This document shows positions 17,366 through 46,906 of a DNA stretch of 64,000 nt, in pieces. A model generated the notes under the pieces. That model saw only the letters and a list, made by a program, of their open reading frames with translations, was not told the DNA's origin and did not search any database. Source of the DNA: Puniceicoccaceae bacterium. GTDB taxonomy: Bacteria > Verrucomicrobiota > Verrucomicrobiia > Opitutales > Oceanipulchritudinaceae. The first letter of the stretch is position 1. The number at the start of each line of letters is the position of its first letter. The position numbers and the translations under genes are program-made. The stretch lies in the NCBI GenBank assembly GCA_040830765.1, contig JBFOMH010000004.1, positions 32,001 through 96,000 on the forward strand. Direction: 5' to 3'.

Positions 17366-17629
17366 TTAAAGGTATCGGTAGACATCCTCCAGTTTCAATT
17401 CGTTGGCCAGCATCATGACCTGGGCGTAGTACAGGAGCTGGGAGATTTCCTCAGCCGCCTCTTCCTTGCTCTCATAACGCGAGGCCATCCACACTTCCCC
17501 GGCCTCCTCGATCAGCTTTTTGCCAATGGCATGCTTGCCCCGCGCCAGGAGCTTGACCGTCCCGGATTCCGGGTCGCCGCGTTCCGCCTTTTCTGACAAC
17601 TCAGCGAATAAACTTTCAAAATCTTTCAT
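17366..17629 (-). CDS. hisE: Phosphoribosyl-ATP pyrophosphohydrolase (monofunctional)
   Basis: [11 protein letters not shown]...[13 protein letters not shown]...EEISQLLY; directly upstream of hisG. Confidence 0.93.
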
Positions 17630-17682
17630 GAACCGACCAACAAAACGCCTCCTGCCCTTTCCCACAATGGCAAATTTTCCTC

Positions 17683-17709
17683 TTTGACATGATTTTTACA
17701 TTTGTAAAA
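17683..17709. promoter_or_regulatory. Candidate operator/promoter between hisE and the response regulator
   Basis: TTGACA at 17684-17689; direct repeats TTTGACAT/TTTTACAT 11 bp apart; palindrome TTTTACA-tt-TGTAAAA (17694-17709). Confidence 0.45.
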
Positions 17710-17750: not shown

Positions 17751-18518
17751 ATGGCGAAACCAAAACCACTCATACTGATCGTCGAGGACGATCCTGAACT
17801 TGCCCAGTTGATTTCCGACCAGCTGGAATCGGCAGGAATGCTGACCCAGGTCCATCACCGGGCCGCCAACGTTACCCGCTACCTGCAGAACAACTTTGCC
17901 AACCTGATGTTGCTGGACGTCAACCTTCCGGACCAGTCGGGATTTGCCCTAGTTGACACCCTCAAGCAGGAGGACATCGACCTTCCGGTCATCTTCCTGA
18001 CGGGTAACGACAGCGAAACGGACCGCGTCAAGGGCCTGGAAATGGGCGGAGACGACTACATTACCAAGCCCTTCAGCTTCAGTGAGCTGGTGGCCCGGAT
18101 CAATGCCGTCCTGCGCCGCGCGGAGACCTCCAAGGATGACAAGGTGACCAAGAACGCCAGTGTCTCGGAGGAACCCTTTGAGTTCCAGGGGGCGATGGTG
18201 AATCCGGAACGGATGGAAATCGGCTTCCCGGATGGGGAGTCGGTCAAGATTGGGCGCAAGGAACTGGGCATCCTGTCCTTCCTCAATTCCAATCCGAACA
18301 CGGTCATCACCCGCCGGACCCTCATCCACGGCGTCTGGGGCATCCATGCCGACGTCCGCAGCCGCAGTCTTGACCAGTACATCGTCAAGGTCCGGGGCCT
18401 CTACCAGAAGCACGGACTCAACCTGGATGCGTTCAAGACCATCCATGGTGTGGGCTACATCTACAACACCGAGGGGGAGGCGGATGAAGCCGAGTCCACG
18501 GAGAGCCCGGTAGAGTAG
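17751..18518 (+). CDS. OmpR/PhoB-family response regulator
   Basis: Receiver IVEDD, LLDVNLPD, FLTG, ITKPF; winged helix VWG...RSLDQYIVKVR...TIHGVGY; AGGAG upstream of ATG. Confidence 0.93.
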   Translation: MAKPKPLILIVEDDPELAQLISDQLESAGMLTQVHHRAANVTRYLQNNFANLMLLDVNLPDQSGFALVDTLKQEDIDLPVIFLTGNDSETDRVKGLEMGGDDYITKPFSFSELVARINAVLRRAETSKDDKVTKNASVSEEPFEFQGAMVNPERMEIGFPDGESVKIGRKELGILSFLNSNPNTVITRRTLIHGVWGIHADVRSRSLDQYIVKVRGLYQKHGLNLDAFKTIHGVGYIYNTEGEADEAESTESPVE

Positions 18519-18529
18519 GCTCCCTGCCC

Positions 18530-19186
18530 ATGGAACTGGAACCGAAAACGATCCGGGTCCTTGGAGCCCTGATGGAGAAGGCCCGTACAACCCCGGAAAG
18601 CTACCCCCTTACCCTCAACGCGCTGGTCCATGCCTGTAACCAGAAGACCAGCCGGGACCCCGTGACGGACTATGACGAGGACGAGGTACTGGACGCGCTG
18701 GACGCGCTGCGGGAAATGGGATTCGTCATGCGGGTCGATCTGGCCGGCTCACGAACCGCCAAATTCCGGGAGAACCTGAGTACCCAATGGGACCTGAGTG
18801 CTGAAGAATATGCCCTCCTGGCCACCCTCTTCCTGCGGGGTGCACAGACCCCCGGGCAGCTCCGCCAGCGTTCCGACCGCATGCACCCGTTTGCTGACTT
18901 GCAGCAGGTGAATGATTGTCTGCACCAGATGCAGGAACGGGAGGAAGAGCCGCATTGCCTCGTCCGGTCGCTGGAACGCGCCGCCGGGACCAAGGAGATC
19001 CGCTGGGAACACACCTTTTTACCGGAATCCGCCCCGGCAGCTGGGATTGTTGAAGAGGAGGAGCAGAAACTTCCACCCCCGCAAAACCAGCAACCCAGCC
19101 GGATTGACCAGCTGGAGGAAAGACTGGCGGCATTTGAAAACCGCCTCAAGGCCATCGAGGAGCTGCTCCATGAGCTCAACGACTGA
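18530..19186 (+). CDS. yceH: YceH family protein (DUF480)
   Basis: RVLGALMEKARTTPESYPLTLNALVHACNQKTSRDPV, LRGAQTPGQLRQR, C-terminal coiled coil. Confidence 0.9.
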   Translation: MELEPKTIRVLGALMEKARTTPESYPLTLNALVHACNQKTSRDPVTDYDEDEVLDALDALREMGFVMRVDLAGSRTAKFRENLSTQWDLSAEEYALLATLFLRGAQTPGQLRQRSDRMHPFADLQQVNDCLHQMQEREEEPHCLVRSLERAAGTKEIRWEHTFLPESAPAAGIVEEEEQKLPPPQNQQPSRIDQLEERLAAFENRLKAIEELLHELND

Positions 19187-20492
19187 ACCCACGGGGAACG
19201 GTCTGGTTCTCCTCGACCACAAGACGGTCATCAAGGGGAAGTTTCCACCACTGGAGGTCTATCCGCTTGATGCCCCGACCGGATCCGCCTGGGTGGGTGA
19301 GTTTGACGGAAAGGTGGCATGGCTGTCACTGGGTGACCTCGACGAAAACGCCATCCGCCGATACTGGAAAGGGGAAGTCCGGATCGCAGATGAAGGCCGC
19401 ATCGGTCCTGGGGACCTGTTTGAGGCTTTCCAGGGACAAGCCCGGCTGGAACTGGTGCCCGTCGGGACTGCGTTCCAGCTGTCGGTCTGGCAGGAGCTGG
19501 TTCGTATTCCTTTTGCCACTACACTGACCTATGGGGAACTGGCCGAACGGCTTGGCTCGCCTTCCAAGGCAAGGGCTGTCGGCACGGCAGTGGGGGCCAA
19601 CCCCATCGCCTGGCTCATTCCCTGCCACCGGATCCTTCCGGCTGGGGGCGGCATTGGCAGCTACCGCTGGGGCAGCGCGATCAAGGAGAGCCTCCTGAAC
19701 TGGGAAAACCAGCCCCATCCCACCGGCGCTCCCGATCAGGATGTCGAGGACATCCGCAAGCTGGAAGCGATGCTGCTCAATGCCCAGCGCTTTGAGGACA
19801 TCGCCAAGCTGGCCGGGCACATTGCCCATGACTTGAACAACCTCCTCGCCCCCATCCGGATGGCGACCGAGTTACTGAAGCGCAAACTGGAAGATGATTC
19901 GGTCGGGCGTTATGTGGAAATCATCGAGACCAGTACCGGCCGGGCCCGGGCGGTGATCCAGGAAATCCTTACCTATGCGAGGGAATCGGAAAGCGCGGAC
20001 GCGGAAGTGATCGACATCAACCAGCTTCTCGAGGAACTGGAAGGTCTGGCAGATGATACTTTCCCGGATACGATTACCCTGTCATTTGACTATGATCCGG
20101 AAACTCCCCTGGTGAGCATTGCCCCGCACCAGCTGCACCGCTCCATCCTCAATCTTCTGGTCAATGCCCGGGACGCCATTTCCGGCAGCGGCGAAATCCG
20201 GGTCAAAGTCAGCACCCATGATTTGGAAATGCGGGTCTGCGTCGGGGACCGGTGCATTGTCCCGGGACGTTATGCCTGTATTTCCGTTTCGGATACGGGT
20301 TGTGGCATCAGTCCGGAAATCCGGGAGGAAATATTTGATCCCTTCTTCACCACCAAGCCGAAGGAGAAAGGTACGGGCCTCGGGCTGGCCTCGGTCTTCG
20401 GGATCATCGCCCGATCGGGTGGATTCATCGACCTCGAATCAATCGAGGGCAAGGGCTCGACATTCCATCTGTTCCTGCCTGAAGCAGGATGA
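19170..20492 (+). CDS. Fusion of methylated-DNA--protein-cysteine methyltransferase (Ogt/AGT) and histidine kinase (HisKA + HATPase_c)
   Basis: 440 aa from ATG 19170. AGT: GTAFQ..VW, TYGELA, RAVG, ANP, IPCHR, YRWG, LLNWE. Kinase: AHDLNNLL, NLLVNARDA, DTGCGI, IFDPFFTTK, GTGLGL. Confidence 0.9.
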   Translation: MSSTTEPTGNGLVLLDHKTVIKGKFPPLEVYPLDAPTGSAWVGEFDGKVAWLSLGDLDENAIRRYWKGEVRIADEGRIGPGDLFEAFQGQARLELVPVGTAFQLSVWQELVRIPFATTLTYGELAERLGSPSKARAVGTAVGANPIAWLIPCHRILPAGGGIGSYRWGSAIKESLLNWENQPHPTGAPDQDVEDIRKLEAMLLNAQRFEDIAKLAGHIAHDLNNLLAPIRMATELLKRKLEDDSVGRYVEIIETSTGRARAVIQEILTYARESESADAEVIDINQLLEELEGLADDTFPDTITLSFDYDPETPLVSIAPHQLHRSILNLLVNARDAISGSGEIRVKVSTHDLEMRVCVGDRCIVPGRYACISVSDTGCGISPEIREEIFDPFFTTKPKEKGTGLGLASVFGIIARSGGFIDLESIEGKGSTFHLFLPEAG

Positions 20493-20500
20493 ATGGCCCG

Positions 20501-20800
20501 TTATTCCTTTTTCTCAGGAGCAGCTTCTGCCTCGGGGGCTTCCGCAGCGGGCGCCGGTGGCGGCACCTCTTTGGCGGCTGGTGGAGCCGGCTTCTTTTCC
20601 GGCTCAACGGAATCCATGGCTTCCTGAAAATCGTCCTGCACTTCCTGGGCGGCCTTCTTGAATTCCTTCATGGACTTGCCCAGCCCCTTGGCCAGTTCCG
20701 GAAGCTTCTTGGCCCCAAACAAAAGCAGAATGATAACAAGGATAATCAGCAGCTCGGGACCACCGAAACCCTGAATAAATGCTGGATGGAGTAAATTCAT
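20501..20800 (-). CDS. tatA: Twin-arginine translocase TatA/TatE
   Basis: [38 protein letters not shown] plus Pro/Ala/Glu tail. Confidence 0.93.
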
Positions 20801-20934
20801 CAACTTCAACCATAAGGTGGGCGGGGCATCTGTAAAGGATAAGAAACAGCTGCCATGGAATGCCGGGAATGTTCTTCGCGCTTGCAAAGTCGCCCGGCCA
20901 TTTGCTTCCTTTGTAGGGGAAGTTTCCCACTGCC

Positions 20935-28720: not shown

Positions 28721-29809
28721 ATGGGCGCATTCCCCGAAAGTCGTCCAACCACATCCCCCGATACGAAGCAAGCAGCGCTGATATGCCCGGAAGATGTGGA
28801 TTGGATTTTTGACGTTGATACACTCCGTTCCGCCGGAGGGGAAACGTTGATGCGGCTACATGGATTGGAAGAGGCGCCGAAGGACTATCCCCACTATCCC
28901 TTTAACCTGAGCAACAGCTCTGCCGTCATCTGGGACCAGACGGTCCGGAAGCTTTCCATGGCAGCCGGGGAATCCCACCTCATCGTCACCGGGCACAGCC
29001 GCAGCGAGGCCCAGGACATTGTCTTCTATGCCCGCATCGCCGGATACCGTGAGGAAGGCCTGCCGCGGATTGCCGCCACTTTCCAGAAGATTGACCAATC
29101 GAGTTACCAGACGGTAGCCGACTCCACCCGTCAAAACTGGCTCTATCTCCTTCACGAGATCAAGAACCCGATCTCCATCCTCAAGACCGCCGAGGACCTG
29201 GAGTTCCAGAAGGCGACTGGTGGAGTGAGTCCCGAAGAGGCCTCCCAGACCCGGCTCTTTGCCATGGCCTGCCTCGAGGACCACCTGCGCAACGGGGTCT
29301 TCCTGGCCACTGAGGATTCACGGATGATCCCCAGTCACCCTGAGCCGCTTGACCTGAAGATCTTCCTCGACGATGTCCGCGCAACCTTCCAGACCCTCCT
29401 GCGCCTGCAGAATAACACACTGGAAGTGAAGCTGGATATCGACACCCACCAGGTTGCCCGGATCGACCGCACCCTGCTGGCCCAGCTGCTCAATAACCTT
29501 CTCCTGAACAAGATGAACGTCCTCCAGGGAGAGACCGTTGTCCTCGAGTGCTCCCTCGGCAGTTCGAGGCATGACGGAAGCGGGACCCACCTTGTCATCA
29601 CCATCGAGGACGAGGGACCGCCCTTCCCGGAATTTGTCCTCCACGGCGGTGAACAGGAAATCAACCTTGAGGGCCTCCTCCAAGTGCAGCGCAGCTCCGG
29701 TTTAGGCTTGCCGATTTGCCGAAGAATTGCCTCCGTAATGGGAGGAGAAATCAAGTTCTACAACGATGCGCCAAAAACCCGCATCCGTATCTGGTTGCCC
29801 CTTGAATAG
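28721..29809 (+). CDS. Cytoplasmic sensor histidine kinase, atypical ATP-binding boxes
   Basis: H-box LHEIKNPISIL, QLLNNLLLN, IEDEG, SGLGLPIC, MGGEI; no TM segment. Confidence 0.75.
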   Translation: MGAFPESRPTTSPDTKQAALICPEDVDWIFDVDTLRSAGGETLMRLHGLEEAPKDYPHYPFNLSNSSAVIWDQTVRKLSMAAGESHLIVTGHSRSEAQDIVFYARIAGYREEGLPRIAATFQKIDQSSYQTVADSTRQNWLYLLHEIKNPISILKTAEDLEFQKATGGVSPEEASQTRLFAMACLEDHLRNGVFLATEDSRMIPSHPEPLDLKIFLDDVRATFQTLLRLQNNTLEVKLDIDTHQVARIDRTLLAQLLNNLLLNKMNVLQGETVVLECSLGSSRHDGSGTHLVITIEDEGPPFPEFVLHGGEQEINLEGLLQVQRSSGLGLPICRRIASVMGGEIKFYNDAPKTRIRIWLPLE

Positions 29810-32130: not shown

Positions 32131-33732
32131 ATGTCTGAGAAGCGCATAAGCATACCTGAACCCATGTGGGCGGTGGCCGGCCTACTCATCGGATGGGTCG
32201 GGCTGATAAGCCAGGTCCGCCACCACTGGGGTGGTGAGTCCTACTACAATTTTGGTTGGTTTGTCCCCCCGCTGGCCATCTGGCTTCTGCTGAGGAACTT
32301 GGGCAAGTTGGATGCAGCTGCAGCCCGCTCTGGAAACGCTGATGGTAATGGGACATCTGGACCTGACAGGATCGCCCTTGGGCTGGCCATGGCCATCCTG
32401 CTGCCCGTCCTGCTCTTTCACGCTTTTTCCGAAGTGAATCCATTCTGGCGGGTTCCGCTTTGGGCTCAAGGCGCCTGTTTGTCAGGCTTTACCCTGGTGC
32501 TGCTATTCCGCTACTATGGATGGAGAGGCATCGGGGCGGGCTTGTTTCCGCTCCTCTTCCTGAGCACGATGATCCCGTGGCCATTCCGACTTGAGACCGC
32601 GATTGTCCACTGGCTGACGAACATAGTGATCGGATTTTCCGTCCACGGCCTGCACTTTCTCAGTTATCCCGTCGAGATGTCCGGTAACTCGCTGCGACTG
32701 GGAGAAATCCGGATTGGCGTAGACGATGCCTGCAGCGGGATCCGTTCCCTGCAAGCCCTCTTTATGGTGACGCTTTTCCTCGGCAGCCTCTTCGGGCAGT
32801 CGACGCTTCGCCGTACCTTTGCGGTACTTTTGCTTCCGGTGGTTGTCATTATTGTCAACACCGGCCGGGCCATTTTCCTCTCGACGCAGGTAATTGTAAA
32901 TGGGCAGGAAGCCTATGATAAGTGGCATGACCCGGCGGGCTACATCGCCTTTGGCGTCAGCATGGTCTTGATTTATGCGGTTATCGAACTGCTCAACATC
33001 GGTGGTTCCGGCTCGGCCCAGTCACAGTCCATCGAATTCAACAAACTCCAGGACCATTGGGCGGGAAGCGCTCCCGGCAGACTGGCAGTCGGATTTGTTC
33101 TGCTCCCGACAGTCATCCTGGTGGCTGTGGAAGGTTGGTTCCGGTTCCATGAGATGGGAAATGAACCGCAAAAATTCTGGGAATTATCCCTTCCCGCGGA
33201 AGAAACAGATAGCGTTACATACCTTGAAATTGGCCCCCGCATTGAGGCTGCCCTGGGTTACAGTTATGGCCATCGTTTCAACTACAGCTTGCCGGGGCAT
33301 GGCAATCTTGTGGACGTCTATTATTATGGCTACACGGGGGATAACAAAATTTCCAGCGTCTCCTCCTACGGTCATGCCCCGACCATCTGCATGGAGTCGA
33401 CGGGCGCTGTCCTTGAGAGGGAATTTGATTCACTGCTGGTTGATGCCGGGGAGTTGCGCATCCCCTTCAAGCATTACCTCTTCCGGCTACCGGACAGCGA
33501 TTTGCCGATCCAGATCTTCTGGACAGTCTGGGAAGCGAGAAACATGGACATCGATCCGGAGCAGCTACAATCATTGAATTACAAGACCCAGTGGGTCCAA
33601 CTGGTCAACGGGCGGCGTGATTTTCGCCGCCAGGTCCTCCTTCTCAGTTTTATAGGGATGGAGAATGAGGGAACGGTCCGGGAGGAATTCCAGCACCTGA
33701 TGCATGAATGGATTACTGTTCCCGGATACTGA
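32131..33732 (+). CDS. Exosortase with C-terminal EpsI-like domain
   Basis: Multi-TM; YYNFGWFVP; catalytic Cys (DACSGIRSL), Arg (NTGR), His (WHD); C-terminal HAPTICM resembles the EpsI HxPxxC motif. Confidence 0.88.
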   Translation: MSEKRISIPEPMWAVAGLLIGWVGLISQVRHHWGGESYYNFGWFVPPLAIWLLLRNLGKLDAAAARSGNADGNGTSGPDRIALGLAMAILLPVLLFHAFSEVNPFWRVPLWAQGACLSGFTLVLLFRYYGWRGIGAGLFPLLFLSTMIPWPFRLETAIVHWLTNIVIGFSVHGLHFLSYPVEMSGNSLRLGEIRIGVDDACSGIRSLQALFMVTLFLGSLFGQSTLRRTFAVLLLPVVVIIVNTGRAIFLSTQVIVNGQEAYDKWHDPAGYIAFGVSMVLIYAVIELLNIGGSGSAQSQSIEFNKLQDHWAGSAPGRLAVGFVLLPTVILVAVEGWFRFHEMGNEPQKFWELSLPAEETDSVTYLEIGPRIEAALGYSYGHRFNYSLPGHGNLVDVYYYGYTGDNKISSVSSYGHAPTICMESTGAVLEREFDSLLVDAGELRIPFKHYLFRLPDSDLPIQIFWTVWEARNMDIDPEQLQSLNYKTQWVQLVNGRRDFRRQVLLLSFIGMENEGTVREEFQHLMHEWITVPGY

Positions 33733-40840: not shown

Positions 40841-41044
40841 ATCAGCGATTAAAATATCCAGCAAGGGGATTCATCTACTTAAGTAAGGGCGACTTGCCTG
40901 ACAGGAGAGCGCAACGGTCAGCAAATTTGGCCACCGCTTCCAACTCAGTCAGGTTTTGATTAGTCATAAAAAACTTTTGAACTTCGCCCAGCGGGCGAAA
41001 AGGAATTGAGTCAACAATTCAAAGAGGCATTCTGCTTAGTAGAG

Positions 41045-44000
41045 ATGGAGGAGCCCCATGAGAAGGCAACGGATGCTCGTGAAGATGCGTTGGGAGATTC
41101 GGATCAAGCGAAATTCCCCAGCCTGCTTGATTACAGTATTCATGAGCTCTTTCTACAACAGGTTACCCTTCATCCCGGTGCTATCGCCATTGAGGATGGG
41201 GAAGAAATACTAACCTACCAGGAGCTGGATGTGCGCGTCCATGCCCTTGCGAGCATCCTCATACAAGAAGGTGTAGGATACCGACAAAGAGTTGGCGTAC
41301 ATTTGCACCGATCCAGTACATATGTCGTCAGCTTGTTGGCTATTTTGAGGGTTGGAGCGACCTACGTTCCCCTACCAGAGGACTATCCCAAAGAACGCAT
41401 ATCCTACATTATCCAGGATGCAGACATAGGTGCCGTGCTTTCCAGTGGAGCCCTGCCTGCATTCTTGAGGCAATCCGGCTTGGTTGTCATTGACCCCGGT
41501 CAAGTGGTCACCTTGGACGATTCCAGGCATGATAAGGAAATCGCTACCGAAGTCACCGGGAAAGATCCTGCCTACATTATGTATACCTCCGGTTCAACGG
41601 GAACACCCAAAGGCGTTATAATTCCTCACAAAGGTGTTATCCGGCTCGTAAAGGAACAAAGTTATGCCCGATTCACTCCGGAGGCCAAGTTCCTCTTTCT
41701 GTCCTCCCCTGCCTTTGATGCATCCACATTCGAAATATGGGGTGCCCTCCTGAATGGTGGGACCTGCGTGATTCATTCCGCCCGGTATCTAGATCTCGAT
41801 GAGCTAAAAAAAACTATCCGCCAGCACAAAGTCACGACGACCTGGCTGACCTCCGGGCTCTTCAATACAATAATCGATACGGACCCTTCGATGATTCAAA
41901 CCGTCGAACATGTCCTCACCGGAGGGGAGGCCCTATCTCCAGGTCATGTTGCCAAAGCCCTCCAGATCTTCCCAAAGCTGCGTTTAACCAATGGTTATGG
42001 TCCAACAGAATCCACCACCTTCGCATTGACACACGAAATTTGTAGCGAAGATATCGAACGGGCTTCCATACCCATTGGCAGACCCATTAACAACACGAAT
42101 GCTTACATCCTGGATAGGGAGGGGCAGCCTGTAGGGCCTGGTTGCGCAGGGGAGCTTTATCTTGGCGGAGCCGGCCTTGCCATAGGTTATCTTAACCAAC
42201 CAGAGTTAACTGCAGACAAGTTCATTCTGGATCCCTCTTCTGCTACACAGACGACAAGGCTTTATAAGACGGGTGACCGTGTTCGTTTTATCGATGATAG
42301 TGTTATTGAGTTTCTCGGAAGAGAAGATGCCTTGATCAAGATCCGAGGATTCAGGATCGAATTGGGGGAAATTGAAACGGCGTTAAGCAAGCATTCAAAA
42401 ATCCTACAGGCCGCGGCTAATCCGGTTAAAAACGATGAAGGGACAGTCATCAGCATTAGGGCCTATTTTGTTTCGAAGCAGAATTCCTCGATTCCATCCG
42501 AGGAAGAGTTGAGGGAATTCCTACGGACTCAACTTCCCAAATATGCGATTCCGGATCGGCTGGTTTGCATTCCAGAAATTCCCCTTACTGCTAATGGAAA
42601 GGTCAACCGGGACGCTCTTGCAGGCTTCCATACCGAACGGATGATTCATCCACCTGCAATCGAACCTCCGCGTACGCCTGAGGAAGAAGCTCTGGCAGGA
42701 ATCTGGAAGGACCTGCTCGGGTTGGAAGCCATCGGGCCCGATGATGACTTTTTTTCCCTTGGTGGTGAATCCCTGCTCGCAACCCAGCTTGTTTCCCGCA
42801 TCCGATCGCAGTTCAAGAGGAAGTTCACGGTAGCTGATCTGTTTCATAATCCAACAATCAATGAAATTTCCTCACACCTTTCCACCGCCGAGAAGCTACA
42901 GGAATCCCGGAAGGTCCTCCAAGAGACGAATCCCGGGTTGAATCGCTTTCCCCTTTCCTATTCCCAGGAAGGTCTGTGGTTTACAAATGCGATGGAGGAA
43001 GGCCTGCTCAGGAACAATATCGCGGACGGCCTTTCGCTGGAAGGAGCTCTTGACAAGGCAAGCCTTATGCAGGCAATTGAATTTCTTGTCGCACGCCACG
43101 AGTCCTTCCGGCTCCGATTCGACGTGGAGAATGGATTGCCGGTACAGTACCTGACAGATGATCCAGGGAAAATTTTTGAATTTGACGACTTTAGTGAACT
43201 CGAGGTGCGCAACAGTGAGCAGCGGGTAGAGAAACACTTGCGAAATGCCCAGGAGCAGGCCTTCGACATGAAGAACGGACCACTCTTCAAATTTCACTTG
43301 ATCAAGCTCTCAGAGGACCGCCATCTGCTTTTCTGGGTCTGCCATCACATAGTCGCGGATGGCTGGTCATTCAGTTTGCTGAAGCACGAGATCGGGGCCT
43401 GTTACGACGCATACTCACAAGGACGGAAACCAGCGTTATCCGAATTGAAAGTCCAGTATTCGGACTTCTGTCTTTGGCAGCGGGAAACTTTGAAGGGGAA
43501 CGAACTGGAGCGCCAGGCCAACTACTGGACCAAGCAACTGCAAGACGCCCCCCAGTTGGCACTGCCCACGGATCAGCCAGCAACGGCGCGGTCTTCATTC
43601 GCCGGGAAGGAACATAGGTTCAAGATTCCCACGGAACTATCCGGGCAAATTGCAAAATACAACATGGCTGAAGGGATTACGCCTTATATCAGCCTTATGG
43701 CTGCCTTTCAGGTTCTGCTTTTCCGTTACACGGCCCAAACGGATATTGTCACCGGCACACCTGTTGCTAACCGGCAACAAGAAGAATTTGAGCGCGTCAT
43801 GGGCCTTTTCGTCAATACGCTTGTGATGCGACTGGACCTGTCCGGGTCACCGAACTTCACAGAAGTCATTCGACGTTTCAAAGAGGTGACAATTGCCGCC
43901 CACAGTCATCAGGACCTTGCCTTCAGCAAACTGGTTGAGCACTTGAATCCACCTAGACAGGTCAATCGCCATCCCATCTTTCAGGTGGCCATGGCGGTTC

Positions 44001-46906
44001 AAGATATGCCATTTCCGGCCCCGGCGTTCAAGGCACTTACCGTATCGGATTACCCGGTGAGCGAAGTGATGACCCAGTTTGACCTGGAGCTGCATTTACG
44101 CAATGAGGGAGGTAGCTGGCAGGGGAAGTTCATTTACCGGAAAGACCTGTTCAAAGCGGGAACCATTGAGCGCATGGCGAGCCACTTCTGTAACTTACTC
44201 GAAAATCTTCTCGATAACCCCCAGCAGCCTGTCTCAGAAATAAATCTGTTGTGCGATGAGGAGCGAGAGGTAATCCTCAAGGAGTGGAGCAATGCCAGTC
44301 CACTTGTCCCCATCAAGGACTCCGTTCACTCGATGTTTGAACATCAGGTTTCGGTCTCAAAGGATGCTCCGGCATTGATTGAGAATTCCAGGACATTGAC
44401 TTATGTGCAACTGAACCACCATGCAAACCTGCTGGCTGCAAGGCTCCAGGAATCAGGAGTTGAATCCGGACAAATGGTCGGAATTTACCTGGACCGCTCA
44501 ATAGAATTTATTGTCAGCCTTCTGGCAGTCATGAAAGTCGGGGGTATTTATGTCCCCCTGGCAACGGATTATCCTGAGAGTCGATTAAGGTTCATGGTGG
44601 AGGATGCTGGAATCCGTGTGATTCTGGCTAGGAATGCACTCCCAGCGTGGATGCAGGAAGACCGGTTTACGCACTTGGATCCAGCTGATTCTGGGAATGA
44701 CCCTCTGTTCGGAACTGAATTCGAATCCATACCGGGTGAAGGGGACACTCCTGCTTATCTCATGTACACTTCCGGTTCTACGGGGAATCCCAAGGGTGTC
44801 CTTATACCCCATCACGGAATCATCCGGCTGGTCAAGGACCAGGCATATGCGGAATTTGGACAGGATAGACGATTCCTATTTCACTCTTCTCCGTCCTTTG
44901 ATGCCTCCACATTCGAAATTTGGGGGCCCTTGTTGAATGGGGGTGCCTGTGTGGTTTCCGAGAAAAGGCACAACAGCCTGCACGACTTGAAGGAGACCAT
45001 TTGCCGACATAAGGTTAGCACGATTTTTTTAACTACGGGTTTGTTTAATCTGCTCGTAGATACCCTTCCAGAGGCGCTGGCAACGGTTGACCATGTCCTC
45101 ACCGGAGGTGAGGCGCTGTCACCTTCCCATACCCGGAAACTGCTGGAAAAATTTCCCGGCCTTAGGCTAACAAACTGCTATGGCCCCACGGAGTGCACAA
45201 CGTTCGCACTAACCCATGATATATCAGCAGAAGACCCATCCACCTACTCCGCTCCTCTTGGAATACCTATTGGGAACACTGAGACCTATATCCTGGATTC
45301 ATCAGGAAATCCCGTCCCCGCAGGGATTCCGGGAGAACTGTGCCTTGGCGGGCAGGGTTTGGCACTGGAGTATCACAATAACGCGGAAACCACTTCTGAG
45401 AAATTTGTCGCTCATCCCTTTTCAGAAGATCCCAGTGTACACCTCTATCGGACAGGAGACCTGTGCCGCTACCGGGAAAACGGATTTCTTGAATTTATTG
45501 GGCGGATGGATCGTCAGGTTAAAATCCGGGGATTCCGGGTGGAAATGGGGGAAATAGAATCCGCCATAAAGGCCTATCCGGGTATTTCTCAGACTATTGC
45601 TGTGTCCAACCGACCCACCGGCGAATCGATCTCCATCGTCATTTATTATACTGTTATGGATAGTACGAAAGTTCCCCCGGTAGAGGAACTGAGAGATTTC
45701 ATGGCTCAACGAGTCCCGGATTATGCCATCCCGTCAGCTTTTGTCCAACTGGATGCGTTGCCCTTGACTCCGAATGGAAAGATAGACCTGGAAGCATTAC
45801 CTGAAGCAGACTATTTGTCAGCGGACAAGAATGAATCCCTGGACATCCCGGGCTCAAAGGAGGAAGAGGAATTACTCCAGATTTGGAAAAAAATCCTAGG
45901 AACCGAAAATATTGGTCTTCATGACAATTTCTTCGCCCTCGGCGGGCACTCCCTTCTGGCCACAAAAATGATTGCAGCGATTGAACAAGAGCTGGGTGCC
46001 AGGCTCTCCATAGCCTCTCTTTTTGAGGCTCCCACGGTCAAAGGTCTCGCGAAAAGTGTTGCTGCAAAAAGTGCTAGCAACAAAGACAAATCTCTTGTCA
46101 AACTACAAGCTGAGGGGAGCCTTTCTCCCCTATTTTGCCTCCATGGCATGCGTGGCGATCTTTACGCCTTTGTTGACCTGGCAAAACACCTTGGTCCTGA
46201 GCGCCCAGTCTACGGACTACAAGCCCTTGGCTGGGAAGAAGGTGCCCCAAGGCACACCAGCGTTGAAGAAATGGCAGGTCATTATGCCAGTGAGATATTG
46301 GCGATTCAGCCCTCGGGACCATATAATCTCCTTGGATTTTCCGCCGGCGGATGGGTTGCCTTTGCAGTCGCACAGAGACTGCACCAGCAGGGGCATGATA
46401 TTAACTTGTACATGTATGATACCCACTTCCTGACCGCACAGGTTCCCTACTTAGCCTATGCGGTGGGTCGATGCCTGGACTTGTTGGAATGGATACCGCA
46501 TCACGTTACGCGGTTCCTGCAGCAGCCACGGGGCAAAAAACTGGCCTACATAAGAAACCGGCTCGATTGGTTCAGCAAAATGCTACCTTCTAAACAATCT
46601 GAGACATTCGCTGGCAGAACGCGCAAGAGTCCCAAGGAAGAGGATTTGTCGAATGACTATTTCATTCGGGTGATTTCCCAATTCAAACCTGCCATCTACA
46701 GCGGTGGACTGACACTCCTGAGCGACTCAAAGGTAAAAACATACAAACTCAACCTATGGAGATTCCTGATACGCGGAAAACTTGAGGTGCACTATGTCGG
46801 AGGGGGTCACACGGGGATTTTTGACCCGAATTATGTTCGTATCATCGCCGATCTTTTCAGGAAATTGTTAAGCAGGCACGACGAACCATCAGTAGTAAGA
46901 AAATGA
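41045..46906 (+). CDS. Bimodular non-ribosomal peptide synthetase A-T-C-A-T-TE
   Basis: Two sets of YTSGSTGxPKG / YGPTE / YxTGD / NGK; carriers LGGESL and LGGHSL; C domain HHIVADGWS; TE GFSAGG; start 41045 or TTG 41006. Confidence 0.95.
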   Translation: MEEPHEKATDAREDALGDSDQAKFPSLLDYSIHELFLQQVTLHPGAIAIEDGEEILTYQELDVRVHALASILIQEGVGYRQRVGVHLHRSSTYVVSLLAILRVGATYVPLPEDYPKERISYIIQDADIGAVLSSGALPAFLRQSGLVVIDPGQVVTLDDSRHDKEIATEVTGKDPAYIMYTSGSTGTPKGVIIPHKGVIRLVKEQSYARFTPEAKFLFLSSPAFDASTFEIWGALLNGGTCVIHSARYLDLDELKKTIRQHKVTTTWLTSGLFNTIIDTDPSMIQTVEHVLTGGEALSPGHVAKALQIFPKLRLTNGYGPTESTTFALTHEICSEDIERASIPIGRPINNTNAYILDREGQPVGPGCAGELYLGGAGLAIGYLNQPELTADKFILDPSSATQTTRLYKTGDRVRFIDDSVIEFLGREDALIKIRGFRIELGEIETALSKHSKILQAAANPVKNDEGTVISIRAYFVSKQNSSIPSEEELREFLRTQLPKYAIPDRLVCIPEIPLTANGKVNRDALAGFHTERMIHPPAIEPPRTPEEEALAGIWKDLLGLEAIGPDDDFFSLGGESLLATQLVSRIRSQFKRKFTVADLFHNPTINEISSHLSTAEKLQESRKVLQETNPGLNRFPLSYSQEGLWFTNAMEEGLLRNNIADGLSLEGALDKASLMQAIEFLVARHESFRLRFDVENGLPVQYLTDDPGKIFEFDDFSELEVRNSEQRVEKHLRNAQEQAFDMKNGPLFKFHLIKLSEDRHLLFWVCHHIVADGWSFSLLKHEIGACYDAYSQGRKPALSELKVQYSDFCLWQRETLKGNELERQANYWTKQLQDAPQLALPTDQPATARSSFAGKEHRFKIPTELSGQIAKYNMAEGITPYISLMAAFQVLLFRYTAQTDIVTGTPVANRQQEEFERVMGLFVNTLVMRLDLSGSPNFTEVIRRFKEVTIAAHSHQDLAFSKLVEHLNPPRQVNRHPIFQVAMAVQDMPFPAPAFKALTVSDYPVSEVMTQFDLELHLRNEGGSWQGKFIYRKDLFKAGTIERMASHFCNLLENLLDNPQQPVSEINLLCDEEREVILKEWSNASPLVPIKDSVHSMFEHQVSVSKDAPALIENSRTLTYVQLNHHANLLAARLQESGVESGQMVGIYLDRSIEFIVSLLAVMKVGGIYVPLATDYPESRLRFMVEDAGIRVILARNALPAWMQEDRFTHLDPADSGNDPLFGTEFESIPGEGDTPAYLMYTSGSTGNPKGVLIPHHGIIRLVKDQAYAEFGQDRRFLFHSSPSFDASTFEIWGPLLNGGACVVSEKRHNSLHDLKETICRHKVSTIFLTTGLFNLLVDTLPEALATVDHVLTGGEALSPSHTRKLLEKFPGLRLTNCYGPTECTTFALTHDISAEDPSTYSAPLGIPIGNTETYILDSSGNPVPAGIPGELCLGGQGLALEYHNNAETTSEKFVAHPFSEDPSVHLYRTGDLCRYRENGFLEFIGRMDRQVKIRGFRVEMGEIESAIKAYPGISQTIAVSNRPTGESISIVIYYTVMDSTKVPPVEELRDFMAQRVPDYAIPSAFVQLDALPLTPNGKIDLEALPEADYLSADKNESLDIPGSKEEEELLQIWKKILGTENIGLHDNFFALGGHSLLATKMIAAIEQELGARLSIASLFEAPTVKGLAKSVAAKSASNKDKSLVKLQAEGSLSPLFCLHGMRGDLYAFVDLAKHLGPERPVYGLQALGWEEGAPRHTSVEEMAGHYASEILAIQPSGPYNLLGFSAGGWVAFAVAQRLHQQGHDINLYMYDTHFLTAQVPYLAYAVGRCLDLLEWIPHHVTRFLQQPRGKKLAYIRNRLDWFSKMLPSKQSETFAGRTRKSPKEEDLSNDYFIRVISQFKPAIYSGGLTLLSDSKVKTYKLNLWRFLIRGKLEVHYVGGGHTGIFDPNYVRIIADLFRKLLSRHDEPSVVRK

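Follow-up and report, generated by a model that had tools for sequence, protein, structure and literature searches.

In a 64,000-nucleotide stretch of DNA from a Puniceicoccaceae bacterium, whose genome is of a marine Verrucomicrobial type (contig JBFOMH010000004.1, positions 32,001 to 96,000 of the forward strand; this whole stretch is called the window below), we found a gene that fuses an O6-alkylguanine alkyltransferase (AGT) to a histidine kinase. The fusion recurs in independent assemblies, and both of its halves are under purifying selection. The gene is the last of three co-directional and tightly packed genes of an operon, in which it follows the genes for a response regulator and a DUF480 protein. 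Its product is a sensor-type kinase with an undescribed input domain, and it places an AGT in an undescribed regulatory context. We propose that the AGT is the input module and that alkyl transfer to its Cys152, or engagement of a lesion, switches the kinase. We hold this proposal tentatively, just short of an even chance.

Architecture of the AGT-kinase protein

The gene and the parts of its product are as follows:

19170..20492, + strand: AGT-histidine kinase fusion gene, 440 amino acids plus stop (translation, Pfam, alignment)
19248..19454, + strand: AGT N-terminal domain, residues 27-95 (AlphaFold2, Foldseek)
19455..19709, + strand: AGT C-terminal catalytic and DNA-binding domain, residues 96-180 (Pfam DNA_binding_1, E = 2.8e-28)
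19710..19757, + strand: variable proline/acidic linker, residues 181-196 (AlphaFold2, alignment)
19758..19985, + strand: stalk helix and DHp domain, residues 197-272, with H220 and the HDLNN motif (HisKA, E = 1.5e-11)
19986..20489, + strand: catalytic ATP-binding (CA) domain, residues 273-440, with N, G1, F and G2 boxes (HATPase_c, E = 3.9e-22)

Translation of the gene gave 440 residues with a single terminal stop. The reading frame stays open upstream to an ATG at 18912 (526 amino acids), and the extra stretch overlaps the DUF480 gene. Because the N-termini of the homologues align at 19170 and a GAGGAG sits 8-13 nucleotides (nt) upstream of the ATG at that position, the start was placed there. 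Pfam matched DNA_binding_1 at residues 101-180 (model positions 1-80 of 81), HisKA at residues 213-272 and HATPase_c at residues 319-439; it found no other domain in the protein, neither PAS nor receiver. In NCBIfam, TIGR00589 ('ogt') scored 92.4 against a cutoff of 46.4, and no kinase or Ada equivalog passed its cutoff. The highest 19-residue Kyte-Doolittle mean was only 1.43 and lies inside the G2 region. Thus, the protein appears to be soluble, without a transmembrane segment. The initial annotation, which was made from the letters alone, had described an uninterrupted frame of 440 amino acids with a complete AGT over the first ~180 residues, followed by a CckA/NtrB-like kinase with His220 (19827) and intact N, G1, F and G2 boxes, and with no transmembrane segment, PAS or receiver domain. 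This description agrees with the translation, the Pfam and hydropathy scans and the predicted two-domain fold of the AGT, and the motif printout placed every motif where the annotation had put it.

The AGT half carries T120-Y121, R135-A-V-G, A143-N144-P145, IPCHRI (residues 150-155) and E179, and the codon of Cys152 lies at 19623-19625. Residues 105-179 matched residues 98-172 of human AGT (1qnt) without gaps, so C152, H153, R135, Y121, N144 and E179 correspond to human C145, H146, R128, Y114, N137 and E172. The part covered here of a 2023 review of the family (PMC10779285) names these residues as the ones that define an AGT, including the (I/V)PCHR(V/I) motif with the nucleophilic cysteine.

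Even with the E limit raised to 5, residues 1 to ~100 had no Pfam match. AlphaFold2, run with 49 homologues, modelled these first ~100 residues as the sheet/helix N-terminal domain of an AGT, with a predicted local distance difference test score (pLDDT) above 90 over AGT residues 11-180. Foldseek matched the AGT part to the Mycobacterium tuberculosis OGT (4wxd, TM-score 0.79 by target, 163 columns). Since the N-domain folds at pLDDT above 90 and superposes on the M. tuberculosis protein, the AGT is predicted to be complete and not merely a C-terminal half. By every sequence and fold criterion tested, this half is a member of the AGT/Ogt family (PF01035, TIGR00589): it has the PCHR motif, the Cys-activating His and Glu, a helix-turn-helix (HTH) with the Arg finger, the flipping Tyr and the Asn hinge, and the two-domain fold. 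It is catalytically equipped and apparently active. In addition, W51, S53, G55, Y65, W66 and G68 are conserved N-domain residues specific to this family of fusions, and the C-domain is similar to Ada-C (1sfe, E = 5.9e-19), with which it shares the YRWG motif.

Two other identities of the AGT half were rejected. Membership of the Ada family was rejected since Pfam found no PF02805 and no PF12833 or PF00165; furthermore, the NCBIfam Ada equivalog scored 80.3 against a cutoff of 345 and covered the AGT part alone. According to the covered part of PMC10779285, the active-site Cys of alkyltransferase-like (ATL) proteins is replaced, usually by Trp, and they have no transfer activity. An ATL identity was rejected because the active-site Cys is kept in 49/49 sequences of the fused family.

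The kinase half is, by every sequence and fold criterion tested, a HisKA-type histidine kinase. It has an H-box His (H220, codon 19827-19829) in the DHp hairpin, a CA domain with the four boxes (N, NLLVNARDA; G1, DTGCGI; F, FDPFFTTK; G2, GTGLGL) and, encoded nearby, a regulator with an intact receiver. AlphaFold2 predicted helices at residues 189-239 and 243-271. The best PDB relative of this half is the CckA DHp-CA structure 5idj (E = 7.5e-42; Foldseek 1.7e-19), and the CckA CA structure 5idm matched with a TM-score of 0.82 by target. In HisKA proteins, an H-D-x-x-N motif beside the phospho-acceptor His marks bifunctional kinase/phosphatases.

Between the two halves lies a linker of 11-19 residues, with a mean pairwise identity of 0.16 and pLDDT below 50 at residues 183-190. 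The initial annotation had proposed a short linker and a signalling helix here. The stalk segment that it named, RKLEAMLLNAQRFEDIAKLAG, is present as residues 196-216, but a continuous signalling helix from the AGT did not hold up, since the stretch before the stalk is variable in length and of low confidence.

Spread, conservation and selection

Among the 120 matches listed when 5.8 billion proteins were searched by word index, 49 (the window protein and 48 others) carry both the AGT and the kinase domains. The fused homologues are 46-87% identical to the window protein over aligned columns. Two further fusions (P0244 and P0385) came from another search, in which the AGT half was compared with longer proteins. 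In all, the fusion is present in 50 other clusters at 90% identity among the matches listed, which come from NCBI, JGI, ENA and Logan. The carriers with a name are Puniceicoccaceae, Oceanipulchritudo and Puniceicoccales bacterium CK1056. The same junction of domains was found in two independent contigs, L001 and L003, which are described below.

The AGT-kinases form a narrow family. When a library clustered at 50% identity was searched, just 3 of the best 150 matches covered both halves, namely P0029, P0244 and P0074, the last of them a fragment. The Protein Atlas showed no AGT-plus-kinase cluster among those of at least 50 members, generic kinase clusters alone being returned, which is uninformative for so small a family. 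There were 54 long proteins found with the AGT half, comprising 26 AGT-kinases, 14 Ada-type proteins, 12 HhH-GPD plus AGT proteins and 2 oddities.

Twelve AGT residues are invariant in 49/49 sequences (R135, A140, N144, P151, C152, H153, R154, G163, R166, K172, L175 and E179), as are H220, D221, N223 and N224 of the H-box. At least 90% of the 49 aligned sequences also keep Y121 and the residues of the N, G1, F and G2 boxes. Mean pairwise identities, computed over the 47 sequences of at least 390 residues, were as follows:

AGT N-domain: 0.43
AGT C-domain: 0.64
Linker 181-196 (length 11-19): 0.16
Stalk and DHp: 0.74
CA: 0.58

By this measure, the C-domain of the AGT is no less conserved than CA. 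Furthermore, comparison with a single orthologue, that of L001, gave a ratio of non-synonymous to synonymous substitution rates (dN/dS) of 0.098 overall, with dS of about 0.74. In this one pair the ratio was 0.11 for AGT residues 27-180, 0.07 for CA and 0 for DHp, which has zero non-synonymous changes. The selection on the fusion is purifying in both halves, at about 0.1.

Three observations on other AGT proteins were made during these searches. P0126 is a 194-residue AGT homologue with PSHR, in which Ser replaces the Cys. P0409 is a 641-residue fusion of a poly(A)-polymerase/CCA-type domain, an HD domain and an AGT, and its cluster has 78 member sequences. P0407 (sigma70_r2 plus AGT) was considered as a second fusion of an AGT to a regulator and was set aside, since the Arg-rich middle of the protein suggests a frameshift in the gene call.

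The operon and its upstream palindrome

The other elements of the operon are as follows:

17695..17708: perfect palindrome TTTACATTTGTAAA, 43 nt upstream of the regulator ATG
17751..18518, + strand: OmpR/PhoB-type response regulator, 255 amino acids, first gene of the operon (Response_reg, 1.4e-26; Trans_reg_C, 4.4e-13)
18530..19186, + strand: YceH/UPF0502 (DUF480) protein, 218 amino acids, with winged-helix repeats and a C-terminal helix (Pfam DUF480)

Aligned to RegX3 (2oqr), the regulator has its acidic pair, the LLD phospho-acceptor Asp and KPF all intact. No NCBIfam equivalog reached its cutoff for this protein, PhoB and CreB being the nearest. The second protein matched DUF480 (PF04337) over model positions 1-148 of 149 (3.5e-55) and is by this a full-length member of that family. 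It has PDB relatives 5u8j, 5vyv (YceH) and 3bz6, a weak WH_MCM3_C match (1.2e-4, below the Pfam cutoff) and an NCBIfam PRK11239 score of 160.6, which is below the cutoff of 321. No relevant paper on YceH/DUF480 was found in the literature listing covered. The last 17 nt of the DUF480 gene overlap the start of the AGT-kinase gene, and the DUF480 protein is possibly an accessory of the kinase.

The palindrome is invariant in 5/5 orthologous loci, fused and unfused, where it lies 43-48 nt before the regulator ATG (5523-5536 in L001, 2295-2308 in L002, 5534-5547 in L003 and 5834-5847 in L008). It occurs once in the window against 0.03 expected. Among the 78 loci fetched, it was found in these four alone and was absent from the 74 unrelated kinase loci. 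A simple sigma-70 scan called no promoter at the palindrome. We regard the palindrome as a candidate for the operator, for the -35 element of the operon promoter, or for both.

Related loci and the origin of the fusion

A scan of genome contigs with the kinase H-box pattern gave the 78 loci, of which L001, L002, L003 and L008 are orthologous to the window locus. All four have hisG upstream, and in L002 and L008 cdd and an AI-2E transporter gene lie downstream. L001 (87% identical) and L003 (46% identical and cut by the contig end) have the regulator, DUF480 and fused AGT-kinase genes. L002 (2355-4919) and L008 (5895-8461) have the regulator, a separate AGT of 190 amino acids with IPCHRV intact and a kinase of 405-406 amino acids, with no DUF480 gene. 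Both related loci in which the kinase is unfused (2/2) have the AGT gene between those of the regulator and the kinase, and in L002 the AGT start and the regulator stop share 4 nt.

The first ~120 residues of the L002 and L008 kinases are PAS-like by fold only, with a beta2-alpha-beta3 topology. Pfam gave no match for this domain at E up to 5, and the best full-length Foldseek matches of these kinases are the LOV/PAS-kinase chimeras 8a6x and 4gcz. The idea that this domain is a diverged DUF480 was rejected, given the missing Pfam match, the PAS-like topology and the LOV/PAS fold matches. The initial annotation had put the AGT exactly in the sensor position, and the kinases of the same locus in L002 and L008 bear this out, as a PAS-like domain stands there.

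A FastTree analysis of 154 AGT regions placed the L002 and L008 AGTs as sister to 43/44 fused AGT domains, with an SH-like support of 93. The exception is P0042, a partial sequence on a long branch. Regions shorter than 140 residues or without a P[CSW]HR motif were excluded from this tree, including 4 of the 48 fused sequences tried. Since the L002 and L008 operons hold a separate sister AGT, this AGT lineage had joined the two-component operon before the fusion took place. Judged from these sequences, the fusion put the AGT where a PAS-like domain had been, and the AGT and the two-component system are old partners.

The family also includes 19 clusters of orthologous kinases of 253-283 amino acids that lack the AGT domain (P0045-P0058, P0060, P0061, P0064, P0066 and P0067), two of which, P0050 and P0067, may be truncated gene calls. 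These short kinases are 67-76% identical to the kinase half of the window protein. They begin with MxSxPE as the fused proteins do, followed by a short Pro/Ser/Glu-rich stretch and then by the stalk helix. In the window, the codons of the MxSxPE peptide lie where the gene overlaps the end of the DUF480 gene, whose product terminates in HELND; L003 has neither the DUF480 overlap nor the MxSxPE peptide. The short kinases presumably also follow a DUF480 gene.

In a quick IQ-TREE analysis of 98 kinase domains (SH-aLRT only, midpoint root), the fused and short forms made one clade (SH-aLRT 95), and the forms with a PAS-like domain, or with a PAS-like domain and a receiver, fell outside it. The short forms are scattered among the fused ones; parsimony counts 6 changes, and the starred branches force at least 2. 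Taken together with the AGT tree, the simplest account would be a single fusion, after which the AGT domain was lost repeatedly. In addition, a search for close stand-alone AGTs returned fragments only (P0125, on a contig of 1,051 bp, and P0074). The same search missed the known P0122 and P0123, which are 44% identical, so it is weak evidence that the short forms have no separate AGT.

Proposed mechanism

In our proposal, the AGT domain would scan DNA and flip an O6-alkylguanine into its pocket, and the alkyl group would be moved irreversibly to Cys152. The alkylated AGT fold would be destabilised, which would alter how the tethered domain bears on the DHp/CA core. This would shift the kinase/phosphatase balance and change the phosphorylation of the regulator, and the regulator would act at the palindrome-marked promoter, at least that of its own operon. 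As with methylated Ada, each molecule would signal only once, and protein turnover and new synthesis would reset the system. DUF480 is possibly a co-regulator. Given the variable, disordered linker, we would expect the signal to pass by docking and undocking, by unfolding or by DNA sequestration, and not by a helical piston. The sequences show the architecture, the conserved catalytic residues, the purifying selection, the operon structure and the long association of the two lineages; each step that leads from the alkylated Cys to a change in phosphotransfer is inferred, as are the direction of the response and its regulon. The initial annotation had likewise inferred an Ada-like adaptive response built on phosphorelay, which the present results support in part.

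In favour of this reading, the AGT is the sole non-kinase domain of a kinase that retains the invariant H-D-x-x-N motif. Further points for it are the intact domains, the joint conservation of both functions, the sensor position of the AGT and a partnership older than the fusion. Moreover, the covered part of PMC10779285 reports that AGTs flip the damaged base and transfer the alkyl group irreversibly to Cys, that alkylation destabilises AGT with loss of contacts between its N- and C-domains, and that in Ada an irreversible alkylation already serves as a signal for transcription. The proposed alkylation switch is plausible because of this destabilisation and the Ada precedent. The same source notes that AGT is inactivated by thiophilic agents and by nitric oxide. 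Direct attack on the reactive Cys152 by electrophiles is a further possibility, with marine methyl halides as a speculative natural stimulus. The fuller proposal is a phosphorelay-based adaptive response, in which each repaired O6-alkylguanine or each electrophile hit on Cys152 would irreversibly switch one subunit, with DUF480 as a partner. This is possible, and we hold it with some doubt.

Several points weigh against the AGT as input. The ORFs scanned across the window include no alkA, alkB, ada or aidB, and the palindrome occurs there only once; nothing ties the output to alkylation defence. The AGT-to-stalk connection is variable and is not predicted to be a continuous helix, which makes rigid-body transmission unlikely. 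This objection is softened because the PAS-type relative likewise has a short low-confidence break at the same place (residues 120-123). In addition, the 19 clusters of short orthologues have the kinase without the AGT, and since they nest among the fused forms, the kinase evidently persists with no AGT attached. Finally, DUF480 is present in 3/3 fused loci (the window, L001 and L003) and in 0/2 PAS-type loci (L002 and L008), exactly where the PAS-like domain is missing. Its gene is translationally coupled to that of the kinase, and DUF480 may be the actual input.

Alternative explanations

Most of these points can also be read in favour of an alternative in which the AGT is passenger repair cargo that has a long history of co-transcription within this operon. 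Here, a deletion that removed the PAS-like domain would have fused the two genes, the fusion would ensure co-expression only, and the kinase would be controlled by something else, most likely by YceH/DUF480, so that the AGT is an output and not an input. The unfused relatives do carry the AGT as an ordinary operon gene, and DUF480 both follows the fused state across the loci and overlaps the kinase start; the short orthologues and the variable, disordered linker fit as well. Fusions of AGTs to related non-signalling partners are also common: HhH-GPD occurs in 12/54 of the long AGT proteins, and AGT-EndoV fusions are described in the covered part of PMC10779285. What speaks for the AGT as an input instead is that a suicide enzyme bound 1:1 to a kinase would be a poor supply for bulk repair, and that proteins only 46-87% identical to that of the window still carry the fusion, with the catalytic residues of both halves intact. 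A mere passenger would also leave the fused kinase without a sensor domain of its own, and a gene between those of the regulator and the kinase is more typical of an accessory signalling protein. We consider the passenger explanation unlikely on balance, but a serious one.

It is improbable that the AGT serves as a DNA tether, whose non-specific cooperative binding would place or cluster the kinase on the nucleoid, with signalling by DNA state and not by alkyl transfer. The HTH, the Arg finger and the Tyr are conserved, the flexible linker suits localisation, and the DUF480 protein has winged-helix repeats with its weak WH_MCM3_C match. Cooperative DNA binding by AGTs, without sequence specificity, is also reported in the covered part of PMC10779285. 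For a tether, the Cys, His and Glu could drift as in ATL proteins, where the same source gives the change of Cys to Trp and which show that DNA binding can do without these residues, yet all three are invariant in 49/49 sequences.

Control in the reverse direction, in which the kinase module or its ATP state would regulate the repair activity or stability of the AGT, for example by occlusion of the active site, appears very improbable. Phosphorylation inhibits human AGT (PMC10779285, in the part covered), and the domain order permits intramolecular contacts. Nevertheless, the intact H-box, the adjacent cognate regulator and the phosphatase motif point to ordinary phosphotransfer, and there is no sign of Ser/Thr/Tyr kinase activity in the protein. 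An artefactual origin, either by misassembly or through a frameshift between two genes, has a practically negligible chance, as the junction is present in the 50 other clusters from four sources and in contigs L001 and L003, and dN/dS is ~0.1 or lower across the linker and both halves in the single pair compared.

Comparison with known systems and significance

The proposal that the AGT is the input invites comparison with E. coli Ada, which likewise joins an AGT domain to a transcription-control module, uses irreversible self-alkylation as a signal and is reset by turnover. Ada differs in having an Ada_Zn_binding domain and an AraC HTH, neither of which Pfam finds in the AGT-kinase. In E. coli Ada, it is the N-terminal Zn-Cys site whose methylation gives the signal, and not the cysteine of the AGT. 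Furthermore, the output of the AGT-kinase would be phosphotransfer to a separate OmpR-type regulator. In the covered part of PMC10779285, the AGT itself is described as not converted into a transcription factor.

The PAS-HisKA kinases of CckA/NtrB type, including P0121 and P0068 from the same locus, share the DHp-CA core and the stalk helix, and the AGT-kinase is 56-57% identical to these PAS-type orthologues. P0121 and P0068 also share the position between hisG/hisE and cdd/AI-2E and the upstream palindrome. They differ from the AGT-kinase in that a repair enzyme replaces the PAS-like input of the latter, to whose operon a DUF480 gene is added. Stand-alone AGT/Ogt proteins (M. tuberculosis OGT, 4bhb and 4wxd; human AGT, 1eh6) have the same two-domain fold and all of the catalytic and DNA-binding residues, whereas the AGT here is covalently joined to a kinase and has family-specific N-domain residues. 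In AGT-EndoV, ATL-EndoV, Caenorhabditis elegans AGT-2 and HhH-GPD-AGT proteins, the AGT is likewise used as a module of a multi-domain protein, but the partners are repair or chromatin domains and none is a signalling kinase.

According to the initial annotation, this architecture is not known to have been characterised, and our literature search agrees with it: no paper on an AGT-histidine kinase was found in the full-text literature, listings and abstracts covered, with subscription journals outside that coverage. The fusions in the covered part of the 2023 review (PMC10779285) are Ada, AGT-EndoV, ATL-EndoV and C. elegans AGT-2, with no kinase fusion; in that text 'two-component' is absent and the four mentions of 'kinase' concern eukaryotic kinases. 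Moreover, the literature covered describes no histidine kinase whose input is a suicide enzyme. Several consequences would follow if the proposal is true. To our knowledge, bacteria sense alkylation via Ada-type one-component regulators, and we know of no two-component system that reads DNA lesions directly.

Should the proposal hold, the AGT-kinase would be the first among histidine kinases known to detect DNA damage directly, and it would provide alkylation sensing independent of Ada. If the AGT gates the kinase, it would represent a new class of covalent, irreversible input to phosphorelays and a second evolutionary solution to the adaptive response. It would also be a natural scaffold for alkylation biosensors, AGT being the parent of the SNAP-tag, and many SNAP-tag fusion structures were among our PDB matches. 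For YceH/DUF480, which is a widespread family, it would give a first functional context. Meanwhile, one locus offers a series of a PAS-like kinase with a separate AGT, an AGT-fused kinase with DUF480, and an AGT-less short kinase, and this series is an unusually clean comparative system for the contribution of input domains. If the AGT is only cargo, the fusion would still be a conserved Rosetta-stone link from an AGT lineage to a two-component system.

Other features of the window

Upstream of the operon, hisE-like and hisG genes lie on the opposite strand. The HisE-like phosphoribosyl-ATP pyrophosphatase ORF spans 17366-17665 (- strand), upstream of hisG. Its true start is probably an ATG (CAT near 17626-17628) and not the listed GTG at 17665, because conservation across the loci stops there. 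Downstream, the operon unit is ended by a convergent gene:

20501..20887, - strand: TatA (TatA/B/E homologue; Pfam, 1.9e-21)

An ORF of 101 amino acids (20489..20794, + strand) was rejected as a fourth gene of the operon, since it is not kept in L001 and its opposite strand encodes TatA. A second HATPase_c protein is encoded at 28721..29809. The region 24872-63891 appears devoted to surface polysaccharide and includes a sugar transferase, Polysacc_synt_2, Wza-like export, a chain-length-type ATPase, many glycosyltransferases and two sulfotransferases. Within this region lie an EpsH-type exosortase (32131..33732) and a nonribosomal peptide synthetase of 1,966 amino acids (41006..46906) with the domain order A-PCP-C-A-PCP-TE.

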